Shown: positions 6,599 through 43,316 of the stretch, piece by piece
Layout: each line of letters starts with the position of its first letter
Numbering within the stretch: position 1 is the first letter of the stretch
Assembly: GCA_963849955.1 (NCBI GenBank)
Contig: CAWKJU010000022.1
Coordinates: 2,406 to 66,405 of the forward strand
Source of the DNA: an uncultured Cytophagales bacterium
GTDB lineage: Bacteria > Bacteroidota > Bacteroidia > Cytophagales > JAAEPT01
DNA length: 64,000 bases
Reading direction: 5' to 3'
Translations under genes and position numbers: made by a program
Notes under the pieces: model-generated
What the model saw: only the letters and a program-made list of their open reading frames with translations
Databases searched by the model: none
Told to the model about the DNA's origin: nothing

Positions 6599-8866
6599 AT
6601 GAAAAAACTTTTATTACCATTACTGCTTTTTACTTGCCTAGTGGCAAATGCCGCTATTCCAGGTATCACTAATTATTTCAGTACTTTTGGTGGAATGCAG
6701 CCATGGGATGATGGTGAAAAAACCATCTACTGGGGAGTAATTACCTGTCAACCTAATCAGCTCCAAATTGATTTTGAAATAGCAGATAATTACACATTAT
6801 CAAACAATAGTATTGCTCAGCTTATAAACAGTTCCCCTACGTCTATAACTATTGATGTATTTGATGCTTTTGACGGAGTTATCGACATCATGAATTCCTC
6901 GAATGTTCTTATTTGTACAATTCAACTACAACCACTTCCAAATGATTTATTCGGTATATCGTTAGATCCGTATTATAATAATATTAAAGATGATACACTT
7001 TATCTCTGTTCCGCGTTTGGAACTAACCCATTAGAGATAACTTATGAAATCAACGCCCCTTTTAACCCTCAAAATTACTGTTTTCAACAAGATCAAGATG
7101 CAAAAATCTATATCAACAATGTAGCACAAGACAGCAAACTTTGGGAAGACATAACCTTAAAAACTGGTGATACATTATTTGTAAAACGACCTAGCGGTTT
7201 TGTTCCTTGTGATTGTGGTTTTGAACAATTTCAATCTGAACTAAAGACAGACTCTTACATCATTAAATTGGTCGACAATGAAGTGAAGCCTGTAGCTAGT
7301 GTTGTTTCTGGCAACACTACCATTTGCCCAGGCGATACAGCCATATTAGGACAAACAACCGTTACGAGTTTAGATTATAGATGGCATAAAAATAACTCAA
7401 CTAGTTACTATTTTTCTAAAGATACTGTGCCCATTAACCAACCTGGAAAATATAGAATGGCACAATACAACACACCAAAAGGTGAATGTCCTGCTGTTTC
7501 TCCCGTGATAGATGTGATGAAAGGTATTGGCTGCAAAGGATTTATTAATGGTTTCGTCTATAAAGATGGAAGCTACAATAGCACTACCAAAAAATATACT
7601 GCTTATGAAGGCGTAACTGTAAAAACCAACAACGGTATGGTAACTGTAAGTGACAAAAACGGTTATTTCGAATTTTATTACGATAGTATTGTAGACAGTC
7701 AAATCAATCGGGTTTATGTGGCTGACCCAGAATATTATGCTGCTAACGCATCAATCTATACTGACAACAATTTTATGTTGGATGTGAACAACAACCTTTA
7801 TACTTATTTATTAGAAACAAACGATTTAGCAGCTCATTTAAACAGTACCCGAAACCGACCAGGTTTTACCATGCCTTATTATGTATCAGTTGAAAACAGA
7901 GGTAAAAACCCGTTAACAACACAAGTAACAGTAACACTTGACAATAATTTAACTTACACCTCTCTTGAAAGTGAAAACAAACCAACTACTGCAACAGGTC
8001 AAACACTCACTTGGGAAAATGTAACAGTAGAAAGTGGGGTCACAAAACGCCTAACTTTATATGCTGTTTTAGATAGAAAAACAGCGTTAGGAACTGAGTT
8101 AATAAGTACTGCAAAGTTGACTATGGCATCCGCAGATGATGTACCTGCAAATGACAATACCACTTTCAAAACTACGGTAAGCGGATCGTTTGATCCAAAT
8201 GATAAATTAGTGACTTACGTAGGTGCGTTTACTGAAGGATATATCTATGATACTACGAATTTCGAATACACCATCCGTTTCCAAAACACAGGAACTGATA
8301 CAGCTTTCACAGTACGTGTTGAAGATGTAATTTCTAAGAGTTTGGATTTGACTACAATCAATTTTATAGATGCCAGTCATGAATTTACTCCAATCATTTC
8401 AGGAGATACTGTAAAGTGGCTTTTCAAAAACATACTATTAGCTGATAGTAATGTAAACGAACCAGCTAGTCATGGATTCATCCGTTTTTCAATTAAGCAA
8501 AAAGTAGGTAATGCTCCTGGTACAGTGATTAAAAACAAAGCCTCTATTTTCTTTGACTTTAACGAGCCAGTCATCACCAATGAGGTAGTGAGTATCATTA
8601 ACAATGATATAGTTACTGATATTGAGCAAGAAAAACAAGCTCAAGCATTAAAGTTAGTTTCCGCTTATCCTAATCCCGCATGTAATTCTATTTCTATAAA
8701 TGCTGAAGGAACAGGTACACTAGAATTATATAGCAGCATTGGTTCTTTGGTTTTAAAAACTGATAGTAAAGAAAATATTAACATAGATACCTTAAAAAGT
8801 GGAGTGTATTATTACCAGTTTATTACTGATTCGAAGGTATTCTCCGGGAGTTTTGTGAAGGAGTAA
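6599..8866 (+). CDS. T9SS type A sorting domain-containing protein with DUF11/DUF7619-like Ig domains
   Basis: Signal peptide; GSFDPNDK...YTIRFQNTGT...GFIRFSI...IFFDFNEPVITN module; C-terminal YPNP...SGVYYY...FVKE CTD. Confidence 0.85.
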   Translation: MKKLLLPLLLFTCLVANAAIPGITNYFSTFGGMQPWDDGEKTIYWGVITCQPNQLQIDFEIADNYTLSNNSIAQLINSSPTSITIDVFDAFDGVIDIMNSSNVLICTIQLQPLPNDLFGISLDPYYNNIKDDTLYLCSAFGTNPLEITYEINAPFNPQNYCFQQDQDAKIYINNVAQDSKLWEDITLKTGDTLFVKRPSGFVPCDCGFEQFQSELKTDSYIIKLVDNEVKPVASVVSGNTTICPGDTAILGQTTVTSLDYRWHKNNSTSYYFSKDTVPINQPGKYRMAQYNTPKGECPAVSPVIDVMKGIGCKGFINGFVYKDGSYNSTTKKYTAYEGVTVKTNNGMVTVSDKNGYFEFYYDSIVDSQINRVYVADPEYYAANASIYTDNNFMLDVNNNLYTYLLETNDLAAHLNSTRNRPGFTMPYYVSVENRGKNPLTTQVTVTLDNNLTYTSLESENKPTTATGQTLTWENVTVESGVTKRLTLYAVLDRKTALGTELISTAKLTMASADDVPANDNTTFKTTVSGSFDPNDKLVTYVGAFTEGYIYDTTNFEYTIRFQNTGTDTAFTVRVEDVISKSLDLTTINFIDASHEFTPIISGDTVKWLFKNILLADSNVNEPASHGFIRFSIKQKVGNAPGTVIKNKASIFFDFNEPVITNEVVSIINNDIVTDIEQEKQAQALKLVSAYPNPACNSISINAEGTGTLELYSSIGSLVLKTDSKENINIDTLKSGVYYYQFITDSKVFSGSFVKE

Positions 8867-33159: not shown

Positions 33160-34431
33160 TTATTTATAAAGTGGGAAATTTTTCATCCATGCATTTACTT
33201 CTGTTCTTACCTCAGAAATCGCTGATTCATCTTCATGATTAGTCAACACACGATCAATCAATTGAGCGATTTTTTTCATGTCGTCTTCTTTCATATTTCG
33301 AGTTGTAACAGCAGCCGTTCCTAAGCGCATACCTGAAGTCACAAATGGAGAACGTTCATCAAACGGAACCATGTTTTTGTTCACGGTAATGTCAGCTTTA
33401 ACCAAGGCATTCTCAGCTTGCTTTCCTGTCACTCCTTTTGAAGTTAAATCAATTAACATACAGTGATTATCTGTGCCTCCGGATATGATTTTATACCCTA
33501 AATCCACCATCGATTGAGCTAACACAGCTGCATTAGCTTTCACCTGCTTCGCATAGGCTTTATATTCATCTGTCAACGCTTCACCAAAAGCTACTGCTTT
33601 AGCAGCAATCACATGCTCTAACGGACCGCCTTGCGTTCCTGGGAATACAGCACCATCCAACACTTGAGATAATTTTTTTACTTCTCCCTTAAGTGTTTTA
33701 AAACCCCAAGGATTTTCTATGTCTTTACCAATCATAATTAAACCACCTCGAGGACCGCGAAGGGTTTTATGAGTAGTTGTAGTGACAATATGGCAATGAG
33801 GAATAGGGTCATTCATAATACCCGCAGCTATTAAACCTGCTGGGTGAGAAACATCTCCTAATAATACAGCTCCCACTGCGTCAGCTATTTCACGGAAACG
33901 TGCATAGTCTAAATCTCTTGAGTAGGCAGAAGCTCCACAAATAATCAATTTTGGTTTTACTTCTTTAGCAATGCGTTCTACATTGTCCATGTCAACGCGA
34001 CCAGTTTCCTTTTCTACGCCATAGAAATGAGCGTCAAAATATTTACCTGAGAAGTTGACAGGCGAACCGTGTGAAAGGTGACCACCATGAGATAAATCAA
34101 AACCTAAAATGCTATCACCAGGGTTTAAAAAAGCCAACATCACCGCAGTATTGGCCTGCGCACCTGAGTGTGGTTGTACGTTAGCCCATTCAGCACCAAA
34201 CAATTTTTTAGCACGTTCGATAGCAATTGTTTCAACTTCGTCTACTACTTCACAACCTCCATAATATCGTTTGCCTGGCAGTCCTTCAGCGTATTTGTTC
34301 GTTAAAACACTTCCCATTGCCTCCATTACTTGCTTTGAAGTAAAGTTTTCTGAAGCAATTAGTTCAATACCGTGTTCTTGTCTTTCAGCTTCTTGGCTGA
34401 TTAGGTTAAATATTTCTTGGTCTCTTTGCAT
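33160..34431 (-). CDS. glyA: Serine hydroxymethyltransferase
   Basis: [42 protein letters not shown]. Confidence 0.98.
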
Positions 34432-34454
34432 GATCTAAATATATAAACGAGGTG

Positions 34455-34485
34455 CAAAAATAGGGTTATGAAATGAGAATGCAAA
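34455..34485 (-). promoter_or_regulatory. Bacteroidota sigma70-type promoter of glyA
   Basis: Minus strand TTTG (34482-34485), 19-nt spacer, TATTTTTG (34455-34462). Confidence 0.7.
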
Positions 34486-34542
34486 GGAGTGTTTATGAAC
34501 ATGTTTTGCTTGGCTGGCATTTAAAATGTTTTAAGGTTTAAA

Positions 34543-37500
34543 TCACTTTACAACCATCAGTTTTTCTGACTGAATAATATTTCCCTCAAGATCTTTAAGC
34601 ATCACTAAATAAAGTCCTGAATTGACGGATTCTAAGTGCCATTCAAACAAATGTGTTGTAATCTCTTCTGAAAACACCACCTCTCCCACTGTGCTAATTA
34701 ATTCTAACCGACCTTTTACATTAAGGTCTTTCATCTGAAGCGACACAGAACTTTGTGTTGGGTTAGGGTACGTGATAAAGAAAGTCGATTCATCAACACT
34801 CAAATTATTGACCCCTTGTCGTTGTAAAGCGTTACAACCTTCTCCTCCTAAGTAAAACAAATTGTAAATCACATTATTCGACATGTAATACGCATGTGGA
34901 TAACGATATGCTATACAACCGTAGGCGTGACTGCTTCCACTATAATTAGAATGCACCGATTCCCACTCACCACTTGGTCGTTGATACAATTGATAAACAT
35001 TTTGGTCACTTCCAACATAATAGAACACATCGGATTGTTTATTAATATCGAAATATCCGGTACATGATTTCCATGCTGTACTTGGAACTTGTTTATAGGA
35101 AAGCGCTTTTCCCGGATTATAATTGGTTCCATTGAAAGGTATTTGTTGAAAATCACCGTTCGTATCTAAATAATAGACATTTTTCTTGGTATCAGCACGT
35201 AACATCGTTTCGTTTTTTGCATTGCTTCCAAGTGCATTTACCACCTGATTTGTGTTCATCTCTAAATAATACACAAGACCATTAGCTTGGGTAAAAAACA
35301 GTTTTTGATCCACTTGCAGAAGGTTTGCTCCAGCTACATTGCTAGCCACTACCAACTTTGAATTATTGGGAAGAATTCTTACCAGTTGGTTGGAGGTACT
35401 TCGATAAAATAGTTGCTTTTGACTGTTAACATACAAGTGACTTTGTATATCATTTGCCGTTGGGTGGGTAACAGCTTGCCCCCAGGTTTTGGAAATTCGG
35501 TCATAGCGAACGGATTGAACGGTGTTGGAGGTCGATTTAAAATAAACCACCACTTCGCTCTGGTTTTCAACCAAGGCCACCGAACCCGCTGAATTTTCTG
35601 CTAACACCTCCGAATCAACCCACCGTGAAAGGTCATTATCAAAGGTCACATACCGAAGGTTGTTCGCATGATCGGTAAAATAGATGTGTTCGCTGATTTT
35701 GCTTAGTGCGAAGTTGTTGTTTATTCTTCCCACGGAAGTAAGGGTAGCTTTATTTGCTGACTCGGGGTAGTTCAAAGGGCGAGGTATCCAAGCATCGTTG
35801 CTGGAAGGTGTCACGCTAACTTCAATGGTATTGGTCACACAGCCTTTACTATCTTTAGCGTTCACCTGAAACGTCTGCAGGTCAAACACCCATTGTTCCG
35901 GGTTTAGGGTTAATCGGGACCTGAAGTTTTGATTATATAATCCATAATTCAAGTTCCAATGATTCTGCCAATCAAAATGGTAGGGTGGTGTAGTACCACT
36001 GGCTTCTACCACCAACTTATTGATAGTACATAAATCCAATGTACCGTTAAAATCGGTAGGTTCAATTAACGTAAGTTTGGGTGCTACTGATGAAGGCACT
36101 ACATCTATTAGCTCCTGAATTTTGCCATTGGCTTTGACTATTACGCTTACTTCCCCTCCCTGATAATTACCCTGCTGCCAGTTGTTGACTGTGCCTGTAG
36201 CATTAGTTATGTAGGATTTACAGTTTTGGGATGTAACCCAGCTGTTCCACGTACTTGGAAAGTACCAGCAGATTTGGGCATCTGCAGGCAGTTGAGGACC
36301 TGTGATTTGGTAGCCAAAGTTGGTGTTGTTGCAGGACAATTGGTTGGTTCTAATCAATTGAAGACCCAAGTTGGAAGCTAAGGCATAGGTAAGTTTCCAA
36401 CATCCCACATTGCCAAACTGATTTTGCCAATCGGGGTGTACGCCTAAGTGATAGGTAGTAAACTCCAACTGTTCCGCCATTGATTTTGAAAAAGACATGT
36501 GTGTCTCATCATTCACACATACATATGCGCCTGGGTGGATGATTATTTTCCCATTTCCTCTAACATTAATACCTGCATTATGCCCATCAATAGACAAAGT
36601 ACCTCCCGGATATATATGAAGCTCTCCTTCTAAGTTAAGTCGTGCACCACCTCCATTTAATCGTAAGATGCCCTTATCATAAATTACCAATTGCGTGTTT
36701 TCCCTAACTATTATTTCAGCGAAAGTATCATTTGCTTCTAAAATAGCGTTTTGAGAAATGATAAACTGTCCTTGGTTTTGAAGGTCTAAGATGCCCCTAT
36801 TTACTGTAATGCTTAAGTTATTGCACAGTTCATAGTCCACCGCGCCTGTAAAAGTGAGGGTACGTGTAAAAGTGTCATTATCTTCTCTATCAATTAATAA
36901 GGGTTGAGTTATGCGTTCATAACGCTCATTTACGGTTAAAAAATCGCCTGGTTCAATCGTGTTTTGTTCTCCCCAGTTGTAATTAGCGGTTTTATAAACA
37001 AACTGCATGTTTTTTTCAAAGTGAGACCCTACTATCCATAATTTATTTATGTTAGGAACATATCCATATACAAGGGTATCAGAAATTTGAGTAAAACGAT
37101 TGTTATAGTAGGACATTTGAGTACCTAGACCAGCTCGATAAGCTTCAATATCACCTACTACCCAGTTGTTGCGAAACACTTTTTCTATTTTTTGTAAGTC
37201 GGTATTACAACCTTCCCCCGCAAAACCGTTTCTGTTAATAACATTTACAAAAAAATGAAAGATGTTTAAAGGATTACCTTCAAGCGCTTTTATTATTTGA
37301 CCAAATCCTAAACTCACATCATCTTCATTGCCTGGCGACCAGCTACTCTCAGGAACTGTATTAGTTGTACCCGCAGGAGAAAATATATCCACATCATTAA
37401 AACCAGGGTATTGTCGTGTAGGGATTAGTGGTAAACCTTTATCTTCCCCATCCCACAAATCATAAATGGCTGCTCCTATCAGGTATTCAGATTGGATACC

Positions 37501-39033
37501 TTTTGTATACAAGTATTTCGATCCTCCCACAAGATAATTAGTCGTAATCACTTCGTGTTCTGGCCAACGCCCCTCTTCATATCCACATTCTTTATCTTCC
37601 AACCTGGGATGGGCATCCATCATAAAATAAAAAGCGTGTGCCCAGCCCTCGTTAAAAGCTCCATAAGGATGATCACTTTTAAAGTAAGAGTGACTGCCTT
37701 CATTATCCAGATAAAGGGGTAATTCTCTGTAATTAGTGACCATATAAAACACATGGTGTCCGTATTCATGGTAGATGGTCTCTTCAGTAATTTCATCTCC
37801 ATCTTGTAAAAATATTTTTGGCGTTAACGTAGATGCAATTAATCTATCGGGAAGGTAAAAACTATTTCCATATTCTTGATACATTAAGATGTCTAACGAA
37901 CTATTTCTAGTTAAATGAGGCTGACTGAAAATTTTACATTGAAACGCGCGATGTACCGTCATAAAGCTTTCATCTCCTAAATATAAATTTCCCATGTCTC
38001 TGTGAAAATCATTACCAGCAGATCCTACCGTAACCTTTTCCTGTACTTGATTGCCATCAAGATTAAAGATATTGACATTGATGGGTGTGGTAAGTGCCTG
38101 AATGTTTTCCCCTTGGTATGAACGTGTTTTGGCTACAAACTCTAAAAAAAGTTCCAGGTTTCCTTCATTAAATTGACACGTTTCGTACTTTATTTCAAAG
38201 TTACCATTAGCATCCGTATATGTACTGCCTAGTTCATCATCTAACAAGGGGTCGTTGTCTCGTAAACGCACGTAGATATGTTGCAAAGGAAATTCGACCT
38301 CTATATCTAGGTCGTTGATATATCTTTGCATCAATCTACCTTTCACTACACCATCCTTTTCAGTACAAAAAAGCCCACTAACTCGGGCATTTGCAGGTTG
38401 TAGTTGATCATCTCCGCTATAGTTGATATAATTGGCAGCCTTTTCACTAGACATTAAAATCTCATAAGCTAATCCGGGAATACTTACCCACTGTACGTTG
38501 GTCTTATGATCAGTAGCTAGTTCTATATCTGAAGTTGGGATTTGACTTTTTAACAAACTAATGCGTGTGGAATCGCTGGTGGCTTGAGTGCCCAACCATC
38601 GCTGTGTTGGGTTGCCATAAAAATCGGGGTGATTCCAACTTTGCACAGTTGCCCAGGGAGTAAAATAGATTTTTCCATTGGTTTTAAATTGGTTTCCTGA
38701 TTCACTTTCTACTATCAACCCAATAGTTTGGGCAAAAAATGACACCTTACTTTCAGTAAATTTCAAATGAGCTGGAAACACGATGGAGTCACCTGCTGAT
38801 AAACTAAGAGGTAGGTCAAGTGAAGAAAGAAATACGCCTGGGGGCAACTTAAACCGATAATTAATCAACTCTAAATCAACTGAAGTTTTAAGTACATAGT
38901 GAAGTATGAAGGAAGAGCCCTCTGGGGAAATTTCCTCAGAAATTAATTGTAAATGAACCGTTTTTGCTGTTTCTGCACTAGAGACTCTTGTTAATGCACA
39001 CAGTATTATCAAAGAGAAAAAGAAATTTTTCAT
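34543..39033 (-). CDS. T9SS type A secreted multidomain protein with gluzincin-type metallopeptidase motif
   Basis: Signal peptide; transthyretin-like RLRDNDPLLDDELGSTYTDANGNFEI; HEYGH followed by AFNEGWA; Gly/Ile-rich beta-helix-like stretch; ~40-aa propeller-like repeats (IYFTDHANNLRY, VYFKSTSNTVQS, LFYRSTSNQLVR, VYYLDTNGDFQQ, FYYVGSDQNVYQ); CTD YPNP...SGLYLV...EKLMVVK. Confidence 0.85.
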   Translation of the reverse strand: MKNFFFSLIILCALTRVSSAETAKTVHLQLISEEISPEGSSFILHYVLKTSVDLELINYRFKLPPGVFLSSLDLPLSLSAGDSIVFPAHLKFTESKVSFFAQTIGLIVESESGNQFKTNGKIYFTPWATVQSWNHPDFYGNPTQRWLGTQATSDSTRISLLKSQIPTSDIELATDHKTNVQWVSIPGLAYEILMSSEKAANYINYSGDDQLQPANARVSGLFCTEKDGVVKGRLMQRYINDLDIEVEFPLQHIYVRLRDNDPLLDDELGSTYTDANGNFEIKYETCQFNEGNLELFLEFVAKTRSYQGENIQALTTPINVNIFNLDGNQVQEKVTVGSAGNDFHRDMGNLYLGDESFMTVHRAFQCKIFSQPHLTRNSSLDILMYQEYGNSFYLPDRLIASTLTPKIFLQDGDEITEETIYHEYGHHVFYMVTNYRELPLYLDNEGSHSYFKSDHPYGAFNEGWAHAFYFMMDAHPRLEDKECGYEEGRWPEHEVITTNYLVGGSKYLYTKGIQSEYLIGAAIYDLWDGEDKGLPLIPTRQYPGFNDVDIFSPAGTTNTVPESSWSPGNEDDVSLGFGQIIKALEGNPLNIFHFFVNVINRNGFAGEGCNTDLQKIEKVFRNNWVVGDIEAYRAGLGTQMSYYNNRFTQISDTLVYGYVPNINKLWIVGSHFEKNMQFVYKTANYNWGEQNTIEPGDFLTVNERYERITQPLLIDREDNDTFTRTLTFTGAVDYELCNNLSITVNRGILDLQNQGQFIISQNAILEANDTFAEIIVRENTQLVIYDKGILRLNGGGARLNLEGELHIYPGGTLSIDGHNAGINVRGNGKIIIHPGAYVCVNDETHMSFSKSMAEQLEFTTYHLGVHPDWQNQFGNVGCWKLTYALASNLGLQLIRTNQLSCNNTNFGYQITGPQLPADAQICWYFPSTWNSWVTSQNCKSYITNATGTVNNWQQGNYQGGEVSVIVKANGKIQELIDVVPSSVAPKLTLIEPTDFNGTLDLCTINKLVVEASGTTPPYHFDWQNHWNLNYGLYNQNFRSRLTLNPEQWVFDLQTFQVNAKDSKGCVTNTIEVSVTPSSNDAWIPRPLNYPESANKATLTSVGRINNNFALSKISEHIYFTDHANNLRYVTFDNDLSRWVDSEVLAENSAGSVALVENQSEVVVYFKSTSNTVQSVRYDRISKTWGQAVTHPTANDIQSHLYVNSQKQLFYRSTSNQLVRILPNNSKLVVASNVAGANLLQVDQKLFFTQANGLVYYLEMNTNQVVNALGSNAKNETMLRADTKKNVYYLDTNGDFQQIPFNGTNYNPGKALSYKQVPSTAWKSCTGYFDINKQSDVFYYVGSDQNVYQLYQRPSGEWESVHSNYSGSSHAYGCIAYRYPHAYYMSNNVIYNLFYLGGEGCNALQRQGVNNLSVDESTFFITYPNPTQSSVSLQMKDLNVKGRLELISTVGEVVFSEEITTHLFEWHLESVNSGLYLVMLKDLEGNIIQSEKLMVVK

Positions 39034-39060
39034 AAAAATTGATTTAAAAGATGAAAAGTA

Positions 39061-39675
39061 TTATTGATTAATAAAATAGGTTTTTAGGTTCCAAACCGTA
39101 GCATTAAAGAGTTGTTTGCGAATTAAACCCACATGAGGGGCGTAATAGGTAAACTCTGGTACTAAATTGTGCTGAAACTTTGTGGTGGTAAATTTTAAGA
39201 CCTCATTATATGCAGAATCTTTTATTTGTAAATTATTTAATTTTTCTCTTATTAAATAACCGCTATATAACAATAGAGAGTCTCCCTCTGGATATGAGAA
39301 AAACATTATGGTCGGTTTAAATGTTGGTGGGGGTGATTCATCATACGTATAATTCATCCCCCCCCTCGCCCCTGCAAGAATTTCTGTTTTATAATATGAG
39401 CTATTGTAGTTTATTAGTTGGTATTCGTAGATAATATCTAAATTACTCCTATCTACCATCTTATTATTAGAATACGTAACCGTAATCGTATCTAAAACAC
39501 CTGAAGCTGAGTCTTCATACACCCACCAGCTACCAACAGGAAAGATGACATAGTCCTTCATCATCTGGTTGAGGTAATACGTTGGCTTTTCTTCGCTTTT
39601 GTCTTTTTTTGATGGACAGGCAGTAAATAACACTGCTGTGCTGAGTAATAAAAAGGTGCTGATTGTTTTTTTCAT
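39061..39675 (-). CDS. Lipoprotein paralog 1 of tandem array
   Basis: Lipobox LFTAC; FPVGSWWVYEDSASG and YYAPHVGLIRKQLFNATVWNL shared with the neighbours; in-frame G8 tract at 39358-39365. Confidence 0.88.
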   Translation of the reverse strand: MKKTISTFLLLSTAVLFTACPSKKDKSEEKPTYYLNQMMKDYVIFPVGSWWVYEDSASGVLDTITVTYSNNKMVDRSNLDIIYEYQLINYNSSYYKTEILAGARGGMNYTYDESPPPTFKPTIMFFSYPEGDSLLLYSGYLIREKLNNLQIKDSAYNEVLKFTTTKFQHNLVPEFTYYAPHVGLIRKQLFNATVWNLKTYFINQ

Positions 39676-39840
39676 AGCGTTAAAGAATCTTAAAGAGTGG
39701 TGTAAATATAAAATTTATTTTCTCATTGTGTGTTTTCAAATGAAATTTTTTACTCTAGGGTTTGAAAAGAGGAAAAGTATTATTGATTAATAAAATATTC
39801 TTTTAGGTTCCAAACATCGCCATTAAAAAGCTCTTTGCGG
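39676..39840. repeat. Direct repeat copy A (leader + promoter + spacer + upstream gene 3' end)
   Basis: Closely matches 41857-42022, e.g. cttaaagagtg(g/a)tgtaaatataaaatttatttt...ttttcaaatgaaattttt...aaaagtattattgattaataaaata. Confidence 0.85.
39683..39710 (-). promoter_or_regulatory. Repeated promoter/leader of paralog 1
   Basis: Minus strand TATATTTA (variant -7 element) then cacCACTCTTTAAGATTCTT. Confidence 0.55.
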
Positions 39841-40379
39841 ATCAAGCCAACATTAGGAGCATAGTAGGTGATTTCTGGAATTAGGTTATAGGTATGTTGG
39901 GTTTTTGAAAACTTCTTTACGTGTCTAAAAATTTTGCCTTTAATAGTTAAACTATCTAGGCGCTGTGCAATTAATTCTCCTTTTAAAAGAATGATTGTAT
40001 CTTTTTTTGCTGCATAAAAATTTACTACTGTTGAGAAATTCATATATAAATAAGAATCCTGATAAATGTTATTCCCAGCATCTGCACCTCCCCAAATTTC
40101 GCCTTTATTAAACGATGAATGAAAAACCATATTTCTTATTTCATAATCATCTATTTCATCACGAGTAAATCGGCTTTCACTAGAATTCAGAGTTACAGTG
40201 TCTAAATTTCCAGATGCAGAATCCTCGTACACCCACCAACTACCCACAGGCATAAACACATAGGTTTTAATTTCCTCATTAAAATAGTGGGTTATTTTTC
40301 CGCTATCATCTTTTGAAGGGCAGGCGGTAAATAATACGGTGGTGCTGAGTAATAGAAAGAGCTTAAGTGTTTTTTTCAT
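39780..40379 (-). CDS. Lipoprotein paralog 2 of tandem array
   Basis: Lipobox LFTAC-PSKDD; MPVGSWWVYEDSASG; YYAPNVGLIRKELFNGDVWNLKEYFINQ. Confidence 0.88.
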   Translation of the reverse strand: MKKTLKLFLLLSTTVLFTACPSKDDSGKITHYFNEEIKTYVFMPVGSWWVYEDSASGNLDTVTLNSSESRFTRDEIDDYEIRNMVFHSSFNKGEIWGGADAGNNIYQDSYLYMNFSTVVNFYAAKKDTIILLKGELIAQRLDSLTIKGKIFRHVKKFSKTQHTYNLIPEITYYAPNVGLIRKELFNGDVWNLKEYFINQ

Positions 40380-40385
40380 GAGCTA

Positions 40386-40413
40386 AAGAATCTTAAAGAG
40401 TGGTACAAAAGTA
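40386..40413 (-). promoter_or_regulatory. Repeated promoter/leader of paralog 2
   Basis: Minus strand TACTTTTG (consensus -7) then tacCACTCTTTAAGATTCTT. Confidence 0.65.
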
Positions 40414-40452
40414 AAGCATGTTTGTTAACTAGGTGTTATTTATTGAAAGTTT

Positions 40453-41051
40453 TTAATTATTGATAAAATATTCTTTTAGGTTCCAGACATCACCATTAAA
40501 AAGCTCTTTGCGAATTAAACCCACATGTGGTGCATAATAAGTGACTTTGGGTAGAAGGTTGTAGGTATGTTTTGTTTTTGTGAACCTCTTAACCTGCGTA
40601 TAAACATTGTCTTCAATCGTTAGACTATCTATTCGGTCTGCTATTAACTCACCTTTTAAAAGAATGATGGTGTCATTCTTATAAGAATGAAAATTTGTAG
40701 ATGTTGTAAAGCCAAAATATAAATATGAATCTTTATATGTGTTACCACCTGCATCTGCCCCCCCCAAATTTCGCCTTTATTCAACGATGAATAAAAAACC
40801 ATATTTCTGATTTCATAATCATCTATTTCATCACGAGTAAAATTCTTTTCACTAAAATTTAGAGTTACAGTGTCTAAATCAAGGGTTGCAGAATCCTCAT
40901 ACACCCACCAACTGCCCACAGGCATAAATACATAGGTTTTAATTTCTTCGTTGAAGTAATAGGTTATTTTTCCGCTCTCGTCTGATGAAGGACAAGCGGT
41001 AAATAATACCGAAGTGCTCAGGAGTAAGAATAGGTTTAGTGTATTTTTCAT
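40453..41051 (-). pseudogene. Lipoprotein paralog 3, frameshifted in a G8 homopolymer (phase-OFF allele, pseudogene or sequencing error)
   Basis: ORFs 40656-41051 and 40453-40767 together match paralog 2. Span is 599 nt versus 600 nt for paralog 2. C8 at 40758-40765 needs a ninth base to read EIWGGADAG. Confidence 0.88.
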
Positions 41052-41059
41052 AGTATTAA

Positions 41060-41087
41060 AAGAGTCTTAAAGAGTGACACAAATATA
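41060..41087 (-). promoter_or_regulatory. Repeated promoter/leader of paralog 3
   Basis: Minus strand TATATTTG (consensus -7) then tgtCACTCTTTAAGACTCTT. Confidence 0.65.
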
Positions 41088-41184
41088 AGAAGGATTTATT
41101 GTCATGTGATAATTTTACATGGAAAAGTTGAGAATTGCATTTTTCATAAAAAAGAGATTTAAAACTTAAAACAAAAATTAAAAA

Positions 41185-41856
41185 CTAGTTGGCAATGTGG
41201 TAGTTGACTAAGTTCCACACTTCACCATTAAACATTTCTTTGCGTATTTGACCTACTCCGCTCGCGAAGTAATTTATTTTTGGTATATATGCTGATTTTT
41301 CAAAAGGATAAGTCACTACATAGACACTTTTAAACCCATTAATCTGGTTTATCCACTTTCTCTTCATAATACCATAGGTATTGATTGAATTTCCATAAAC
41401 ATGTAAGGAATCAACATCCCATGAAAAAAAGATTATACCACCTCCAATAGGTGACGGTGAATCCACAACTGTTTCTCTATAAATATTTAGTTCCGTACCT
41501 AGTTCAGAGGTATCCCCAGTATTTGCACAACCGATACTTATGGGATAAGTGAAAGAAGAAGATTCTAGAATCATTCTACAAGATTCAAAATTAAAATCAG
41601 TTTTGTTTGACACCCTAATTTCTATGTTGGATGATTGAACAGAAATAGTATCATATCCCCCAGAAGCTGAATCCTGATACACCCACCAACTACCTACTGG
41701 AAAAACAGTAAATTTTTTTATGGTATCATCCAAATAGTAAGTCGGTTTTCCGTTGTCCCACGGATCTTTCTTTTTTCTTTCTTCGCCATCAAAAAGGCAG
41801 GAGCTTAAAGAAAACACAACCACTAAAAACAGAAAGAGATGTTGTAGTTTTTTCAT
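41185..41856 (-). CDS. Lipoprotein paralog 4 of tandem array (most divergent)
   Basis: Lipobox LSSC; KPTYYL...FPVGSWWVYQDSASG; YFASGVGQIRKEMFNGEVWNL. Confidence 0.85.
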   Translation of the reverse strand: MKKLQHLFLFLVVVFSLSSCLFDGEERKKKDPWDNGKPTYYLDDTIKKFTVFPVGSWWVYQDSASGGYDTISVQSSNIEIRVSNKTDFNFESCRMILESSSFTYPISIGCANTGDTSELGTELNIYRETVVDSPSPIGGGIIFFSWDVDSLHVYGNSINTYGIMKRKWINQINGFKSVYVVTYPFEKSAYIPKINYFASGVGQIRKEMFNGEVWNLVNYHIAN

Positions 41857-42022
41857 TTTTAAAAGAGTCTTAAAGAGTGATGTAAATATAAAATTTATTT
41901 TTTATCATGTATTTTCAAATGAAATTTTTTTACTCTAAGGTTTAAAAAGGTGAAAAGTATTATTGATTAATAAAATAAGTTTTTAGGTGCCAGACCGTAC
42001 CTTTAAAAAGCTTCTGGCGCAC
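41857..42022. repeat. Direct repeat copy B (includes promoter/leader of paralog 4)
   Basis: Matches 39676-39840; contains TATATTTA (41883-41890) and CACTCTTTAAGACTCTT (41863-41879) on the minus strand. Confidence 0.85.
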
Positions 42023-42025
42023 TAT
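41960..42025 (-). pseudogene. 3' remnant of a fifth lipoprotein paralog
   Basis: Minus-strand translation IVRQKLFKGTVWHLKTYFINQ* versus paralog 1 LIRKQLFNATVWNLKTYFINQ*; no room for the rest of the gene before the metK terminator. Confidence 0.8.
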
Positions 42026-42055
42026 GCATATTGCCAGTCTTATGTTTATTAATGC

Positions 42056-42087
42056 AAAAAAAAAGGATAGTGCATAGCACTATCCCT
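42056..42087 (-). terminator. Intrinsic terminator of metK
   Basis: A run followed by ggatagtgc-ata-gcactatcc (hairpin then U tract on the minus strand). Confidence 0.88.
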
Positions 42088-42110
42088 TCAACTTTAGTTT
42101 TTTAAGTCGC

Positions 42111-43316
42111 TTAAATTCCAAAAGCTGCTTTTACTTTATTTACATAATCCAACTTCTCCCAAGTGAAGAACTCTAAACCTTTTTCTGTGTAGGGCTCACG
42201 ACCCATGTGACCATAGGCTGCTGTCGGTAAATAAATTGGGTTTTTCAATTTCAAGCGATTAATTAATCCCTTCGGAGTCATGTCAAAAATCTCCTGAATT
42301 TTTAAGGCAATCTCACCATTAGTCATTTTAACCTTTGATGTTCCGTAGGTATCAACCGTTAAAGAAACTGGTTTAGAAACTCCAATCGCATAAGCTACTT
42401 GAACTAATATTTCATCGCATATTCCAGCGGCAACCACATTTTTAGCAATATGTCGTGCTGCATATGCTGCTGAACGGTCAACCTTTGAAGGGTCTTTTCC
42501 TGAAAATGCACCACCACCGTGGGCACCACGACCTCCGTAGGTGTCTACAATAATTTTTCTTCCCGTTAATCCAGCATCACCATGAGGACCACCAATTACA
42601 AAAATTCCTGTAGGGTTAATGTGGAACTTGGTGTCTTTATCAATAAGCTTAGCGGGAATTACGCGTGGAATTACAATTTCTACTAAGTCTTTACGAATCT
42701 TCTCTAACATCTTGTCAGGTGTATCAAAATCATCGTGCTGAGTAGAAATTACAATGGCATCTATTCGTTCGGGCACATGATCATCAGAATACTGAATCGT
42801 TACCTGAGCTTTAGAATCTGGTCTTAAATAACCGATTACTTCTGGCTCATTTTTTCGAATGTCCGCTAATTCTTTCATGATGCGATGAGATAGCGCCAAT
42901 GCCATAGGCATATATTCTTTGGTTTCTCTATTGGCGTAACCAAACATCATCCCTTGGTCACCAGCACCTTGTTCTTTATCGGTACCAGCACCTTCATCCA
43001 CTCCTTGAGCGATGTCTGGAGATTGTGAATGTAATGAAACCAATACGCCACAAGATTCGGCTTCAAATTTATAATCGGCAGAATTGTAACCAATTTTCTT
43101 AATGGTTTCTCTTGCTACAGTTTGCACATCCACGTATGCTTTTGTGGTGATTTCACCTGCTAACACTACTTGACCAGTAGTAACAAGTGTTTCACAAGCA
43201 ACACGCGAATTCACGTCTTGCGAAAGCATGGCGTCTAAAATAGCGTCTGATATTTGATCGGAAATTTTATCAGGATGACCCTCTGATACCGACTCTGAAG
43301 TAAATAAGTATGACAT
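42111..43316 (-). CDS. metK: S-adenosylmethionine synthetase
   Basis: [48 protein letters not shown]. Confidence 0.98.

Follow-up and report, generated by a model that had tools for sequence, protein, structure and literature searches.

The genetic linkage between the small lipoproteins (LPs) and the T9SS-secreted HExxH peptidase encoded side by side at this locus extends well beyond this genome, and viewed from the enzyme the pairing is close to obligatory. The locus lies in the window, meaning the whole 64-kb stretch of DNA that was analyzed. Our preferred reading, tentative and at a little under even chances, is that of a conserved module in which a secreted zinc peptidase is combined with a switchable LP that would act as a tethered inhibitor or guard. 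It would resemble the potempins of Tannerella forsythia, which inhibit KLIKK peptidases and serve several peptidase classes according to the excerpted text of PMC9890683.

On the minus strand of the metK–glyA interval, a 24-codon remnant is followed by LP4, LP3, LP2, LP1, and then a 1496-aa cargo gene, with SHMT/glyA (E 3e-171) and metK as the flanking genes. The locus comprises the following features:

34543 to 39033, minus strand: T9SS type-A cargo gene, 1496 aa (ORF)
34558 to 34770, minus strand: T9SS type-A C-terminal sorting domain, aa 1422-1492 (Por_Secre_tail, PF18962)
37156 to 38343, minus strand: thermolysin-fold catalytic domain, aa 231-626 (predicted structure)
37639 to 37653, minus strand: NEGWA, aa 461-465, with E462 36 residues after H426
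37756 to 37770, minus strand: HEYGH, aa 422-426 (H422, E423, H426), presumed zinc-binding and catalytic motif
39034 to 39060, minus strand: AT-rich spacer of 27 nt between the LP1 stop and the cargo ATG
39061 to 39675, minus strand: LP1, cargo-proximal, 204 aa, lipobox LFTAC (ORF)
39358 to 39365, minus strand: LP1 G8 run on the coding strand, codons R104-G105-G106, in frame
39703 to 39710, minus strand: LP1 box TATATTTA, one-off TAnnTTTG match, 35 nt 5' of the LP1 ATG
39780 to 40379, minus strand: LP2, 199 aa (ORF)
40406 to 40413, minus strand: LP2 box TACTTTTG, exact TAnnTTTG, 34 nt 5' of the LP2 ATG
40453 to 41051, minus strand: LP3, two overlapping frames, N part 40758-41051 and C part 40453-40764 (ORFs and profile)
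40758 to 40765, minus strand: LP3 G8 run at the frameshift site (sequence)
41080 to 41087, minus strand: LP3 box TATATTTG, exact TAnnTTTG, 36 nt 5' of the LP3 ATG
41139 to 41171, minus strand: relic candidate after the LP4 stop, 33 nt, repeat D9
41185 to 41856, minus strand: LP4, 223 aa, the most divergent paralog (ORF)
41883 to 41890, minus strand: LP4 box TATATTTA, 34 nt 5' of the LP4 ATG
41960 to 42034, minus strand: fifth-copy remnant, LP1-like last 24 codons plus stop (profile match, E 9.4e-4)

An earlier note on this DNA had described four co-oriented paralogs with a fifth remnant and, after a 27-nt gap, a 1496-aa T9SS cargo with HEYGH...NEGWA. The ORFs and a profile search of the 4.43-Mb genome agree with the former, although LP3 also proved to be frameshifted, and ORF and domain searches bore out the latter. 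All six matches of the paralog profile to the genome fell inside this locus. LP2 is 52% and LP4 39% identical to LP1, and the two LP3 pieces are 53% and 49% identical to it. The remnant adjoins the metK terminator (42061-42089), and the inter-LP spacer is repeated after it (families D1, D5, and D6). The 33-nt stretch after LP4 resembles the LP1-cargo junction and cargo start (73% identity) and may, weakly if taken alone, be the leftover of a duplicated LP-cargo unit. A clearer relic of such a unit was seen at 8604-8843 of locus L041.

The cargo begins with a signal peptide, an N-terminal beta-sandwich (aa 25-126), and a conserved linker (aa 127-230), and continues with the thermolysin-like catalytic domain, ~800 aa lacking a family match, and the sorting domain. 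The latter matched PF18962 (E 2.7e-7, 31.2 bits, cut-off 27), while TIGR04183 scored 20.8 bits, below its cut-off of 23; SprA was found in the window's own genome. Outside the sorting domain no further Pfam or NCBIfam family was detected at E ≤ 1, the HEYGH...NEGWA region had no peptidase match in Pfam, NCBIfam (E ≤ 1), or PDB sequences, and no FTP/PepSY propeptide was seen. The assignment of this cargo as a peptidase, made in the earlier note, is supported by the AF2 model (pLDDT 77.1, pTM 0.82), in which the predicted catalytic fold is thermolysin-like. VIA-align matched it to thermolysin 4m65 (Z 17.3, rmsd 3.5, 262 aligned, model residues 207-602), M36 7qp3 (Z 16.9), and LasB 8cr3 (Z 15.2), and Foldseek returned aureolysin (E 2.6e-6) and thermolysin (E 3.2e-6). 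In alignment A4, the H, E, G, and H of HEYGH are invariant or nearly so, E462 is invariant, and YFTPYNTVExWN and YDLWDG emerge as family-specific conserved motifs; E462 is the presumed third zinc ligand, given the gluzincin fold match. The HExxH domain is thereby predicted to be a peptidase of a previously unclassified thermolysin-fold family, which comprised 168 representative clusters at E ≤ 1e-3. The orthologue in a same-genus genome (G001) is 86% identical.

The LPs are ~185 aa when mature, and LP1 is 79% and 72% identical to the two G001 copies. The AF2 model of LP1 (pLDDT 74.2) is an up-and-down beta-barrel with low-confidence central segments (104-112 and 117-140), and its best fold matches were YmcC/LolA-like (3fzx, Z 9.2; 4fvs, Z 9.0). 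Homology to potempins by sequence was rejected; the LP profile had zero sequence matches among PDB chains. By hhalign, the LP also showed no relationship to the N-terminal region of the enzyme (probability 0.1). The central segment is hypervariable (dN 0.33 versus 0.06-0.07 in the flanking blocks), with pairwise dN/dS of 0.2-0.35 there and never above 1. After the lipobox Cys, K occurs at +3 in 43/108 LPs and D/E at +5 in 36/108, a pattern resembling the surface-export signal as excerpted from PMC6414381.

All four LPs have a TAnnTTTG-type box 34-36 nt 5' of the ATG, TAnnTTTG being the Bacteroidota -7 box quoted in the excerpted part of that paper, and zero such boxes were found in the 120 nt upstream of the cargo ATG. 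The 27-nt spacer likewise contains no terminator-like or promoter-like site, as the earlier note had claimed. The TATATTTA box at 39703-39710 is likely the promoter of an LP1-cargo transcript, and co-transcription of LP1 with the peptidase gene is probable.

LP genes are strongly enriched in G/C runs. We counted 18 runs of ≥8 in 129,580 nt of LP ORFs versus 3 in 1,204,149 nt of other (flanking) DNA, and only two in the 64-kb window, including that of LP1, located where the variable central segment begins. Of the runs of ≥7, 18/19 were in cargo-linked LPs and the 19th was at a contig end; distal array copies also carry G/C runs. Split LP copies break at G runs, and in L150 and L155 the run is the sole difference over 850 nt. 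At the homologous site in LP2 the run is interrupted (GGGGAGGTG). With a full-length dN/dS of 0.15 against LP2, LP3 shows no sign of decay. This enrichment, together with the breaks at runs, is a signature of phase variation, with copies presumably switching; both it and the G-run frameshift in LP3 are new relative to the earlier note.

It is quite possible, at somewhat below even chances, that the LP3 frameshift and some split copies elsewhere are homopolymer assembly errors and not OFF states, the G runs themselves being real. The same assembly carries indel errors, as seen in sprA, an essential T9SS gene that a 1-nt indel splits, but this indel lies outside a long homopolymer. The same-genus genome is a metagenome bin, the sole sequencing run containing this DNA gave zero cover over the tract, and the lack of decay in LP3 would also fit an error. 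The enrichment of runs in LP ORFs is, however, independent of any frameshift call, and splits at runs occur in short-read-style assemblies too (NODE_/Ga contigs; L059, L063, L144, and L155).

Linkage from the peptidase side was assessed in 47 peptidase-module loci (hmmsearch, E ≤ 1e-49) of named genomes other than the window's, spanning Cytophagales, Bacteroidales, Chitinophagales, Sphingobacteriales, and Flavobacteriales. An LP lay beside the module on the same strand in 34/47 (26 upstream, 6 downstream, and 2 on both sides) and was truly absent in 3; the other 10 modules are at contig ends with ≤468 nt of upstream sequence and cannot count for or against linkage. Gaps from LP stop to peptidase ATG in these loci were mostly 2-40 nt, and 14 loci had at least two LP copies. 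The pairing persists in genome G037, where gene order is reversed, 5-7 LP copies follow the enzyme, and the enzyme itself has a different architecture (LRR, module, and PKD). The LP-cargo arrangement is not chance, because it recurs in other genomes, and the earlier alternative of a family that is "simply adjacent" is therefore ruled out as regards the enzyme. The window's own genome contains at least 150 CTD cargo matches, yet the LP family occurs at this locus only.

The co-occurrence of LPs with HExxH T9SS cargo, which the earlier note had proposed as a check, is strong from the peptidase side and looser from the LP side. Among metagenome LP loci with ≥1.5 kb on both flanks, the module was present in 5/33 and missing from 28/33. 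Many LPs stand alone or in arrays without cargo, and 19/36 complete same-strand downstream neighbours had no CTD. LPs elsewhere are often directly upstream of other T9SS cargo, including a trypsin-like one (L147), most of which has no recognisable peptidase domain; partners include family B cargo (1421-1513 aa) and small CTD proteins (295-554 aa). A region immediately after the catalytic module (aa 734-853 of the window's enzyme, E about 1e-4) is common to that enzyme and family B. Orphan LPs were present in two genomes in which no module was found (G046 and G209), and the weakly supported LP tree showed 27 changes of module label, suggesting many partner switches.

Under the inhibitor or guard reading, one part would be a T9SS-secreted zinc endopeptidase of a thermolysin-fold family, and the other a family of small outer-membrane lipoproteins, each an up-and-down beta-barrel whose central segment is hypervariable. 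A shared transcript starting at the LP1 promoter box would encode both LP1 and the peptidase, and the LP would be a membrane-tethered, enzyme-specific partner. At the cell envelope this partner would inhibit the peptidase or guard against it, in the way that potempins act on KLIKK peptidases, with the variable segment as the contact element. The earlier note had likewise taken LP1 for a putative cognate inhibitor, chaperone, or anchor, and had supposed that the other paralogs would cover variant or foreign enzymes. The LP gene would have been duplicated repeatedly in tandem, with its own promoter per copy and fast copy turnover among close relatives; many copies carry poly-G where the variable segment begins, and slippage there could turn single copies on or off. 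Binding and inhibition of the enzyme appear the most likely LP role in light of the enzyme-side linkage, the short gaps, and the G037 pairing that survives reversed order. LPs upstream of trypsin-like and other CTD cargo parallel the multi-class potempins, and the hypervariable segment, orphan LPs, and G-run enrichment point the same way. Against this reading stand the loose LP-side link with frequent partner switches, dN/dS never exceeding 1, an LP larger than potempins, and folds of YmcC/LolA type, whose function is unknown or lipid related. A self-protective inhibitor that turns off is not obviously useful, and the enzyme's own conserved N-terminal 200 aa could give latency without a separate inhibitor.

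The same linkage evidence would serve a dedicated partner that does not inhibit, namely, a surface docking or retention site or a factor that helps particular T9SS cargo to fold, mature, or be handed over, in which case an LP copy turned off would release the enzyme or stop its display. LPs do precede T9SS cargo without recognisable peptidase domains, the region common to family B and the enzyme could be a shared contact, and the proteins known to have a YmcC/LolA-like fold are carriers, not inhibitors. We nevertheless consider this role rather unlikely: the at least 150 other CTD cargo matches have no such LP, which is therefore not a general secretion factor, orphan LPs occur in genomes in which no module was found, and chaperones do not usually have a hypervariable contact segment or come in tandem arrays. 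PotA, the only studied precedent, contributes neither to secretion nor to maturation of its peptidase (PMC9890683, excerpted text). It is unlikely, too, that LPs are phase-variable surface proteins with their own job (ligand binding; phage or grazer pressure), recruited only as a switchable upstream gene whose G-run slippage would modulate downstream cargo expression without protein-protein contact. That most LPs are not beside the module, that G runs concentrate in LP genes and chiefly in cargo-linked ones, and that K+3 and D/E+5 are frequent would all fit. The enzyme-side pairing, however, survives inverted gene order, LPs downstream of the enzyme in 6 loci cannot act as leaders there, and in arrays a single copy adjoins the cargo while distal copies also carry runs.

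The enzyme resembles thermolysin (M4), pseudolysin/LasB (M4), and fungalysin (M36) in its predicted two-lobed fold (Z 15-17 over 250-277 aligned residues) and in having HExxH with a downstream Glu in xEGWx, comparable to NExxSD of M4 and EGWSD of M36. It differs in lacking a Pfam M4/M36 match, in its His-to-Glu spacing of 36 residues, and in its family-specific N-terminal sandwich, YFTPYNTVExWN, and YDLWDG. Poly-G contingency genes are familiar from Campylobacter, Neisseria, and Haemophilus, whereas phase variation in Bacteroidota is known mainly from DNA inversion. As in contingency genes, the LP run of 8-12 G sits within an envelope-protein ORF, and paralogs and near-identical sequences differ in run length and reading frame. 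The LP hosts, however, are Bacteroidota from soil, sediment, and water, the run lies mid-gene at the edge of a hypervariable segment, and switching is a prediction from the sequences. Orphan immunity genes also form arrays beside polymorphic toxins, such as those linked to T6SS in Bacteroidales; here too, tandem diverged paralogs adjoin a secreted enzyme, copy number changes fast, and orphans occur in enzyme-free genomes. In contrast, the small genes here encode lipoproteins and are usually upstream, and the enzyme, a large peptidase that is surface-bound or secreted, has no toxin delivery domain and shows no sign of being an interbacterial toxin.

Potempins, as far as the excerpts describe them, share no sequence similarity with the LPs and are smaller (98-132 aa versus the mature LP), and zero potempin chains were among the listed fold matches of the LP. 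The LPs occur in tandem arrays of 2-7 with their own promoters, poly-G runs, and orphans, and the LP-peptidase pair, with its putative inhibition, spans several Bacteroidota orders, whereas the KLIKK system as excerpted is that of one species. In both systems, and especially for PotE and forsilysin, a lipoprotein gene lies directly 5' of a T9SS peptidase gene with a minimal spacer. In both, again on the excerpted description, the lipoprotein has a beta-barrel fold into which a loop is inserted, a single lipoprotein scaffold is paired with different peptidase classes, and forsilysin and, by prediction, the window's enzyme are thermolysin-like.

Every gene in the metK-to-glyA region lies on the minus strand. 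The earlier note had described four genes of a lipoprotein family (LP; LP1 is nearest the enzyme gene) and a remnant of a fifth in one orientation, followed after 27 nt by the gene of a large secreted enzyme, and both the array and the gap were found as claimed. The features, in the order of transcription, are:

42111-43316, minus strand: metK, with Pfam S-AdoMet synthetase domains
42061-42089: terminator-like hairpin of metK
about 41960-42034, minus strand: LP1-like C-terminal remnant of 24 codons (profile E 9.4e-4)
41185-41856, minus strand: LP4
40453-41051, minus strand: LP3, broken into two overlapping frames at a G8 run (40758-40765)
39780-40379, minus strand: LP2
39061-39675, minus strand: LP1
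39358-39365, minus strand: G run of LP1, in frame, codons R104-G105-G106
27 nt: spacer from LP1 to the enzyme gene
34543-39033, minus strand: enzyme gene, 1496 aa
111 nt past the enzyme gene, minus strand: glyA (SHMT, E 3e-171)

Searching the 4.43-Mb genome of this bacterium with the LP paralog profile gave six matches, all six in this locus. LP2 is 52% and LP4 39% identical to LP1, with 53% and 49% for the two halves of LP3, and the spacers between the LPs repeat each other (families D1 and D5-D8). G+C content is 0.31-0.35 in the LP array (window 39000-42000) and 0.37-0.45 in the metK, glyA and peptidase DNA.

The -7 box of Bacteroidota is TAnnTTTG (PMC6414381). An exact copy lies upstream of the ATG of LP2 (34 nt), LP3 (36 nt) and glyA (31 nt), and TATATTTA lies upstream of the ATG of LP1 (35 nt) and LP4 (34 nt). 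No box of this type occurs in the 120 nt upstream of the enzyme gene and no terminator-like site in the 27-nt spacer, as the earlier note had read them. As the gene has no such box and the spacer no terminator, we infer that transcription of the enzyme gene starts at the LP1 promoter or farther upstream. Across window 34000-42400, 14 terminator-like sites were counted vs 5.2 expected from shuffles, most of them within coding sequence.

[quoted passage not shown] The only NCBIfam match was TIGR04183, at 20.8 bits below the cut-off of 23. An N-terminal signal peptide was judged by eye, and SprA is encoded in the same genome (1360 + 819 bits, in two frames). With sorting domain, signal peptide and machinery in the genome, the enzyme is a predicted type-A cargo. 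The genome has at least 150 PF18962 matches (150 scored among 223 candidates), a very large cargo repertoire; another match within the window lies at about 8666-8836 on the plus strand, in a 762-aa frame.

Structural modeling placed the N-terminal peptidase part of the enzyme (the module) in the thermolysin fold. The AF2 model (pLDDT 77.1, pTM 0.82) begins with a beta-sandwich (model residues 1-102), and its residues 207-602 (protein aa 231-626) superimpose on thermolysin with Z 17.3 (rmsd 3.5, 262 aligned); the model reached Z 16.9 with an M36 peptidase and Z 15.2 with LasB, and Foldseek returned aureolysin (E 2.6e-6) and thermolysin (E 3.2e-6). A clean alignment of 15 module sequences shows little or no variation at H422, E423, H426, H448 and E462 or in the motifs YFTPYNTVExWN and YDLWDG. 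The enzyme thus has the HExxH and downstream Glu of a gluzincin on a predicted thermolysin fold, and is probably catalytic. One family member (P0039, 688 aa) has HHMGV in place of HExxH and may be an inactive variant. A phmmer search of aa 25-640 against 1.84 billion representatives returned 168 proteins at E<=1e-3, of which 107 reached E<=1e-10 and 31 reached E<=1e-30; most are 900-1700 aa long with the module near the N-terminus. The enzyme had no match at E<=1 to Peptidase_M4, M4_C or M36 of Pfam or to the T9SS-dependent M36 model of NCBIfam, and the module alignment profile (A4) found no peptidase among PDB sequences. On these grounds the enzyme family is a separate family within the thermolysin fold, outside current sequence models.

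The LPs matched nothing in Pfam or NCBIfam beyond signal-peptide look-alikes. Among 5.8 billion clusters, a word-indexed profile search returned 35 proteins, all unnamed or ‘hypothetical’, and the ESM Atlas neighbors were unnamed Bacteroidota clusters, all annotated ‘hypothetical protein’ and sharing no common Pfam family. The lipobox is LFTAC in LP1-3 and LSSC in LP4; its Cys is nearly invariant in the 32-sequence LP alignment (A2), and a crude lipobox pattern was found in 108 of 154 near-full-length family members. With a signal peptide that ends in a lipobox Cys, the LPs are predicted SPase II lipoproteins. Among the 108, K stands at +3 after the Cys in 43 and D/E at +5 in 36, a faint likeness to the surface-export signal that PMC6414381, a paper on an unrelated lipoprotein metalloprotease, cites. 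In alignment A2 a hypervariable center rich in gaps separates two conserved parts, the N-terminal one with the lipobox Cys and the block FPVGSWWVYED, the C-terminal one with the block YYAKxVGLIxKE...WxLxxYxI.

AF2 modeled LP1 (pLDDT 74.2) as an up-and-down barrel of ~9-10 strands and ~170 ordered residues, with low confidence in the center (aa 104-112 and 117-140). Its best structural matches were 3fzx (Z 9.2, 140 aligned, rmsd 3.7) and 4fvs (Z 9.0), two Bacteroidales proteins that have a YmcC-like fold and no assigned function; LolA (Z 5.5-6.8), RseB, nitrobindin and FABP-type barrels scored Z 5-8. Z 7-8 is common among unrelated barrels, and the LP1 values may mean a common arrangement only. 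We ruled out that the LP is a detached copy of the enzyme's N-terminal region (hhalign probability 0.1). PADLOC gave no credible match for the LPs, the enzyme or a second cargo family found beside LPs (family B, below).

Viewed from the enzyme, the pairing with an LP is nearly obligatory. A genome of the same genus (G001) has the order metK, LP, LP, enzyme (86% identical), glyA. In another family of the order, genome G037 encodes a 1563-aa LRR + module + PKD + CTD protein (30% identity over 626 columns, E 3e-52); 5-7 LP copies come after its gene, and the neighborhood differs. Among 401 genomes of the order, the LP profile matched 27 and an enzyme-module profile (A3) 36; in 10 of these 36 genomes the match includes the HExxH part, and in the rest it is confined to the transthyretin-like stretch or a post-module domain. 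An LP adjoins the module in 8 of these 10, the remaining two being too fragmented to judge (G222) or having 262 nt upstream only (G395).

A wider module scan, with one genome per species, yielded 52 loci, 47 of them with a module at E<=1e-49 by hmmsearch. In 34 of the 47, counted as species representatives rather than independent events and including seven repeat genomes of the order sample, an LP lies beside the module on the same strand: upstream only in 26, downstream only in 6 and on both sides in 2, with families in these other loci assigned by our own HMMs over stop-to-stop ORFs. Ten of the 47 have at most 468 nt of upstream sequence, and three (L067, L070, L080) have enough flanking room and no LP. 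Four loci from non-Bacteroidota records (L083, L084, L087, L089) gave weak or partial module matches and no LP, and in L088 hmmsearch found no module. Where starts were assignable, the LP stop and enzyme ATG are 2-40 nt apart in 19 loci and overlap by 23 nt in one; three loci with broken genes have longer gaps (78, 128 and 306 nt). At least two LP genes are present in 14 of the 34 linked loci. As the pairing is nearly obligatory from the enzyme side, the spacer is tiny and the association survives inversion of gene order, a functional and probably physical partnership of LP and enzyme is well supported by this genomic evidence. The module gene itself is split into two frames in 8 of the 47 loci (L046/L027, L063, L066, L069, L077, L078, L081, L085/L028), by decay or assembly error; only one of these breaks lies near a G7 run.

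Viewed from the LP, linkage is loose. Scanning metagenomes with the LP alignment found 80 loci, 10 of them with a module; these were not de-replicated, and L141/L142, L129/L130, L098/L120 and L150/L155 look like repeats. A module was present in 5 of the 33 loci with at least 1.5 kb on both flanks, so that the co-occurrence of lipoprotein and peptidase proposed earlier holds from the enzyme side but not strictly from the LP side. Orphan LPs with strong scores occur in G046 and G209, genomes in which no module was found. On a tree of LPs, partner labels changed 47 times vs a mean of 72.7 when shuffled (0 of 200 shuffles as low); we draw no inference from this, because the tree is weak and kin share labels.

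The other neighbors are often T9SS cargo themselves. Complete same-strand neighbors within 450 nt downstream of an LP numbered 36, of which 13 have a sorting domain by our own CTD model, 4 are broken or cut module genes and 19 lack a sorting domain; nine more neighbors are cut by contig ends. All eight of these sorting-domain neighbors that were compared with the curated models passed the cut-off of Pfam or TIGR04183, the L093 neighbor by TIGR04183 alone (38.7 bits; Pfam 26.2 against a cut-off of 27). We estimate that sorting domains are enriched several-fold beside LPs, because the at least 150 sorting-domain proteins are estimated at a few per cent of the genes in the window's own genome.

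These partners include a second predicted peptidase class: L147:2406-3980 (+) encodes a 524-aa trypsin-like T9SS cargo (Trypsin E 7.7e-6) whose gene overlaps the LP stop. Family B is a recurrent 1421-1513-aa cargo encoded directly downstream of LP blocks (L107, L121, L128, L144, L150; cut in L115 and L155), without HExxH or any Pfam domain besides the CTD. For its first 700 aa we ruled out a divergent module (hhalign probability 0.2; hmmsearch E>0.02); family B and the window enzyme have a common stretch at window-enzyme aa 734-853 (E about 1e-4), and ESM Atlas gave its N-terminal part a score of 0.82 only. Small sorting-domain partners span 295-520 aa, and a 554-aa neighbor in L141 also has a sorting domain. 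About 950 nt upstream of an LP-LP-module block, L110:1782-6041 (+) encodes a 1420-aa papain-family (C1) T9SS protein, making L110 a cluster of secreted peptidases.

The LP arrays turn over. The LP1 type is retained in G001 (79%, 72% identity), where the LP2-LP4 types are absent, and a further protein-database contig carries LP1-, LP2- and LP3-like proteins (P0007, P0003, P0008). Pairwise dN/dS (Nei-Gojobori) was 0.20 for LP1 vs its orthologue, 0.15 for LP2 vs LP3 and 0.14 for the enzyme. In the LP center, dN was fivefold higher than in the flanking blocks (0.33 vs 0.06-0.07), with a dN/dS ratio of only 0.3; pairwise dN/dS stayed below 1 for all regions and pairs and so gave no sign of positive selection. 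In L041, two LPs flank a fragment of the module's N-terminal part (8604-8843, plus strand; E 4.9e-7), and, as a weaker case, 33 nt after LP4 (window 41139-41171) resemble the start of the enzyme gene. Such remnants point to duplication of entire LP-enzyme units with later loss of the enzyme copy.

The 64-kb window contains only two G/C runs of 8 or more, one in LP1 and one in LP3. Across de-duplicated loci, 19 runs of at least 7 fell in 129,580 nt of LP ORFs vs 18 in 1,204,149 nt of other DNA (two of these in 148,233 nt of module ORFs), and runs of at least 8 numbered 18 vs 3. The LPs thus have the mark of contingency loci, a homopolymer run of at least 8 inside the ORF that is enriched over background. 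The runs come from about nine separate lineages, with module and family B partners alike, and 18 of the 19 runs of at least 7 are in cargo-linked LPs, the 19th being at a contig end. Intact LP genes have the run near mid-gene, and split LP genes pass from one frame to the other there: window LP3, L016 (13958), L030, L060 (7684 and 13010), L144 (6285) and L155, and, at contig starts, L059 and L063. The intact copy in L150 (T4G12) and the split copy in L155 (T6G9) are identical at 847 of 850 aligned positions, differing only at the run, and two L016 paralogs in the same context are intact with G9 and split with G8. This is the sequence pattern of slipped-strand phase variation, with the switching itself putative.

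The LP3 frameshift, and some split copies elsewhere, may be homopolymer errors of assembly. In the same assembly, sprA (G000:C31:132640-139625, outside the window) is split into two frames by a 1-nt indel, either an assembly error or a broken essential gene, which lowers trust in single frameshifts of this assembly; however, the sprA break lies in a short run, not a long homopolymer. The runs listed as containing this sequence were one DNA run (X1, 31% of words) and no RNA run, and contigs from X1 cover neither G run of the window.

What the LPs do for their partners admits several readings. Given the supported partnership and the precedent of the potempins (PotA-PotE, lipoprotein inhibitors of Tannerella forsythia KLIKK peptidases), we rank first that the LP is a tethered inhibitor or guard of the enzyme, at a little under even confidence. 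Ranked second, and rather unlikely, is a dedicated enzyme partner of another kind. A prediction of the complex of the module (616 aa) with mature LP1 scored 0.00, with controls not run, and is no evidence either way. Third, and quite unlikely, the LP would be an independent phase-variable surface protein serving as a switchable leader. The arrays, orphans and G runs allow a bolder form of the inhibitor reading, itself unlikely: the arrays would be a phase-variable shield of tethered inhibitors against the cell's own enzyme or the variant enzymes of neighboring Bacteroidota. Each copy's hypervariable loop would be tuned to its own enzyme or to a neighbor's variant, and poly-G slippage would let a clonal population hedge between armed, self-exposed cells and protected ones. 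T9SS-secreted peptidases would then be weapons between cells, and the LPs a new family of inhibitor folds that is widespread in environmental Bacteroidota and has stochastic control built in.

The LP and enzyme families are now unnamed ‘hypothetical proteins’, so that their description has annotation value, and the LP partner belongs to a thermolysin-fold peptidase family, so far unclassified, with 168 representative clusters. If the LP inhibits, thermolysin-like enzymes, and probably serine peptidases as well, would have a new inhibitor scaffold, and a general rule would emerge for how T9SS organisms cope with the proteases on their own surface. The poly-G runs may represent homopolymer phase variation in environmental Bacteroidota tied to secretion-system cargo; cultured carriers of the LP-enzyme pair include Hymenobacter sp. 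BT190, H. koreensis JCM 17924, H. antarcticus JCM 17217 and Hymenobacter sp. IS2118 (L076, L077, L082, L086), and in cultured Hymenobacter carriers switching is directly testable. Our literature search found the potempin work and nothing on the LP family, the enzyme family or T9SS-linked poly-G switching.

Experimentally documented pairs of lipoprotein inhibitor and T9SS peptidase so far come from one oral pathogen. Potempins are surface-exposed outer-membrane lipoproteins encoded at most 5 bp upstream of six T9SS peptidases of different classes and co-transcribed with them; each inhibits its own enzyme via barrel loops, PotE targeting the thermolysin-like forsilysin (PMC9890683). The LP gene likewise lies directly upstream of a T9SS peptidase, at 27 nt here and at 2-40 nt for the majority of the 26 upstream-only loci. 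Homology to PotA-E was not seen, as a search of all PDB chain sequences with the A2 profile produced nothing but two weak matches to unrelated chains (E 0.22 and 1.5); the potempins are presumably among these sequences, since solved structures are reported (PMC9890683). No potempin chain was among the LP1 fold matches listed, which is not evidence of differing folds. [quoted passage not shown] An unrelated lipoprotein family appears to follow the same genetic logic as the potempins across several orders of free-living Bacteroidota, and its arrays, orphans and G runs take it further than the potempin picture.
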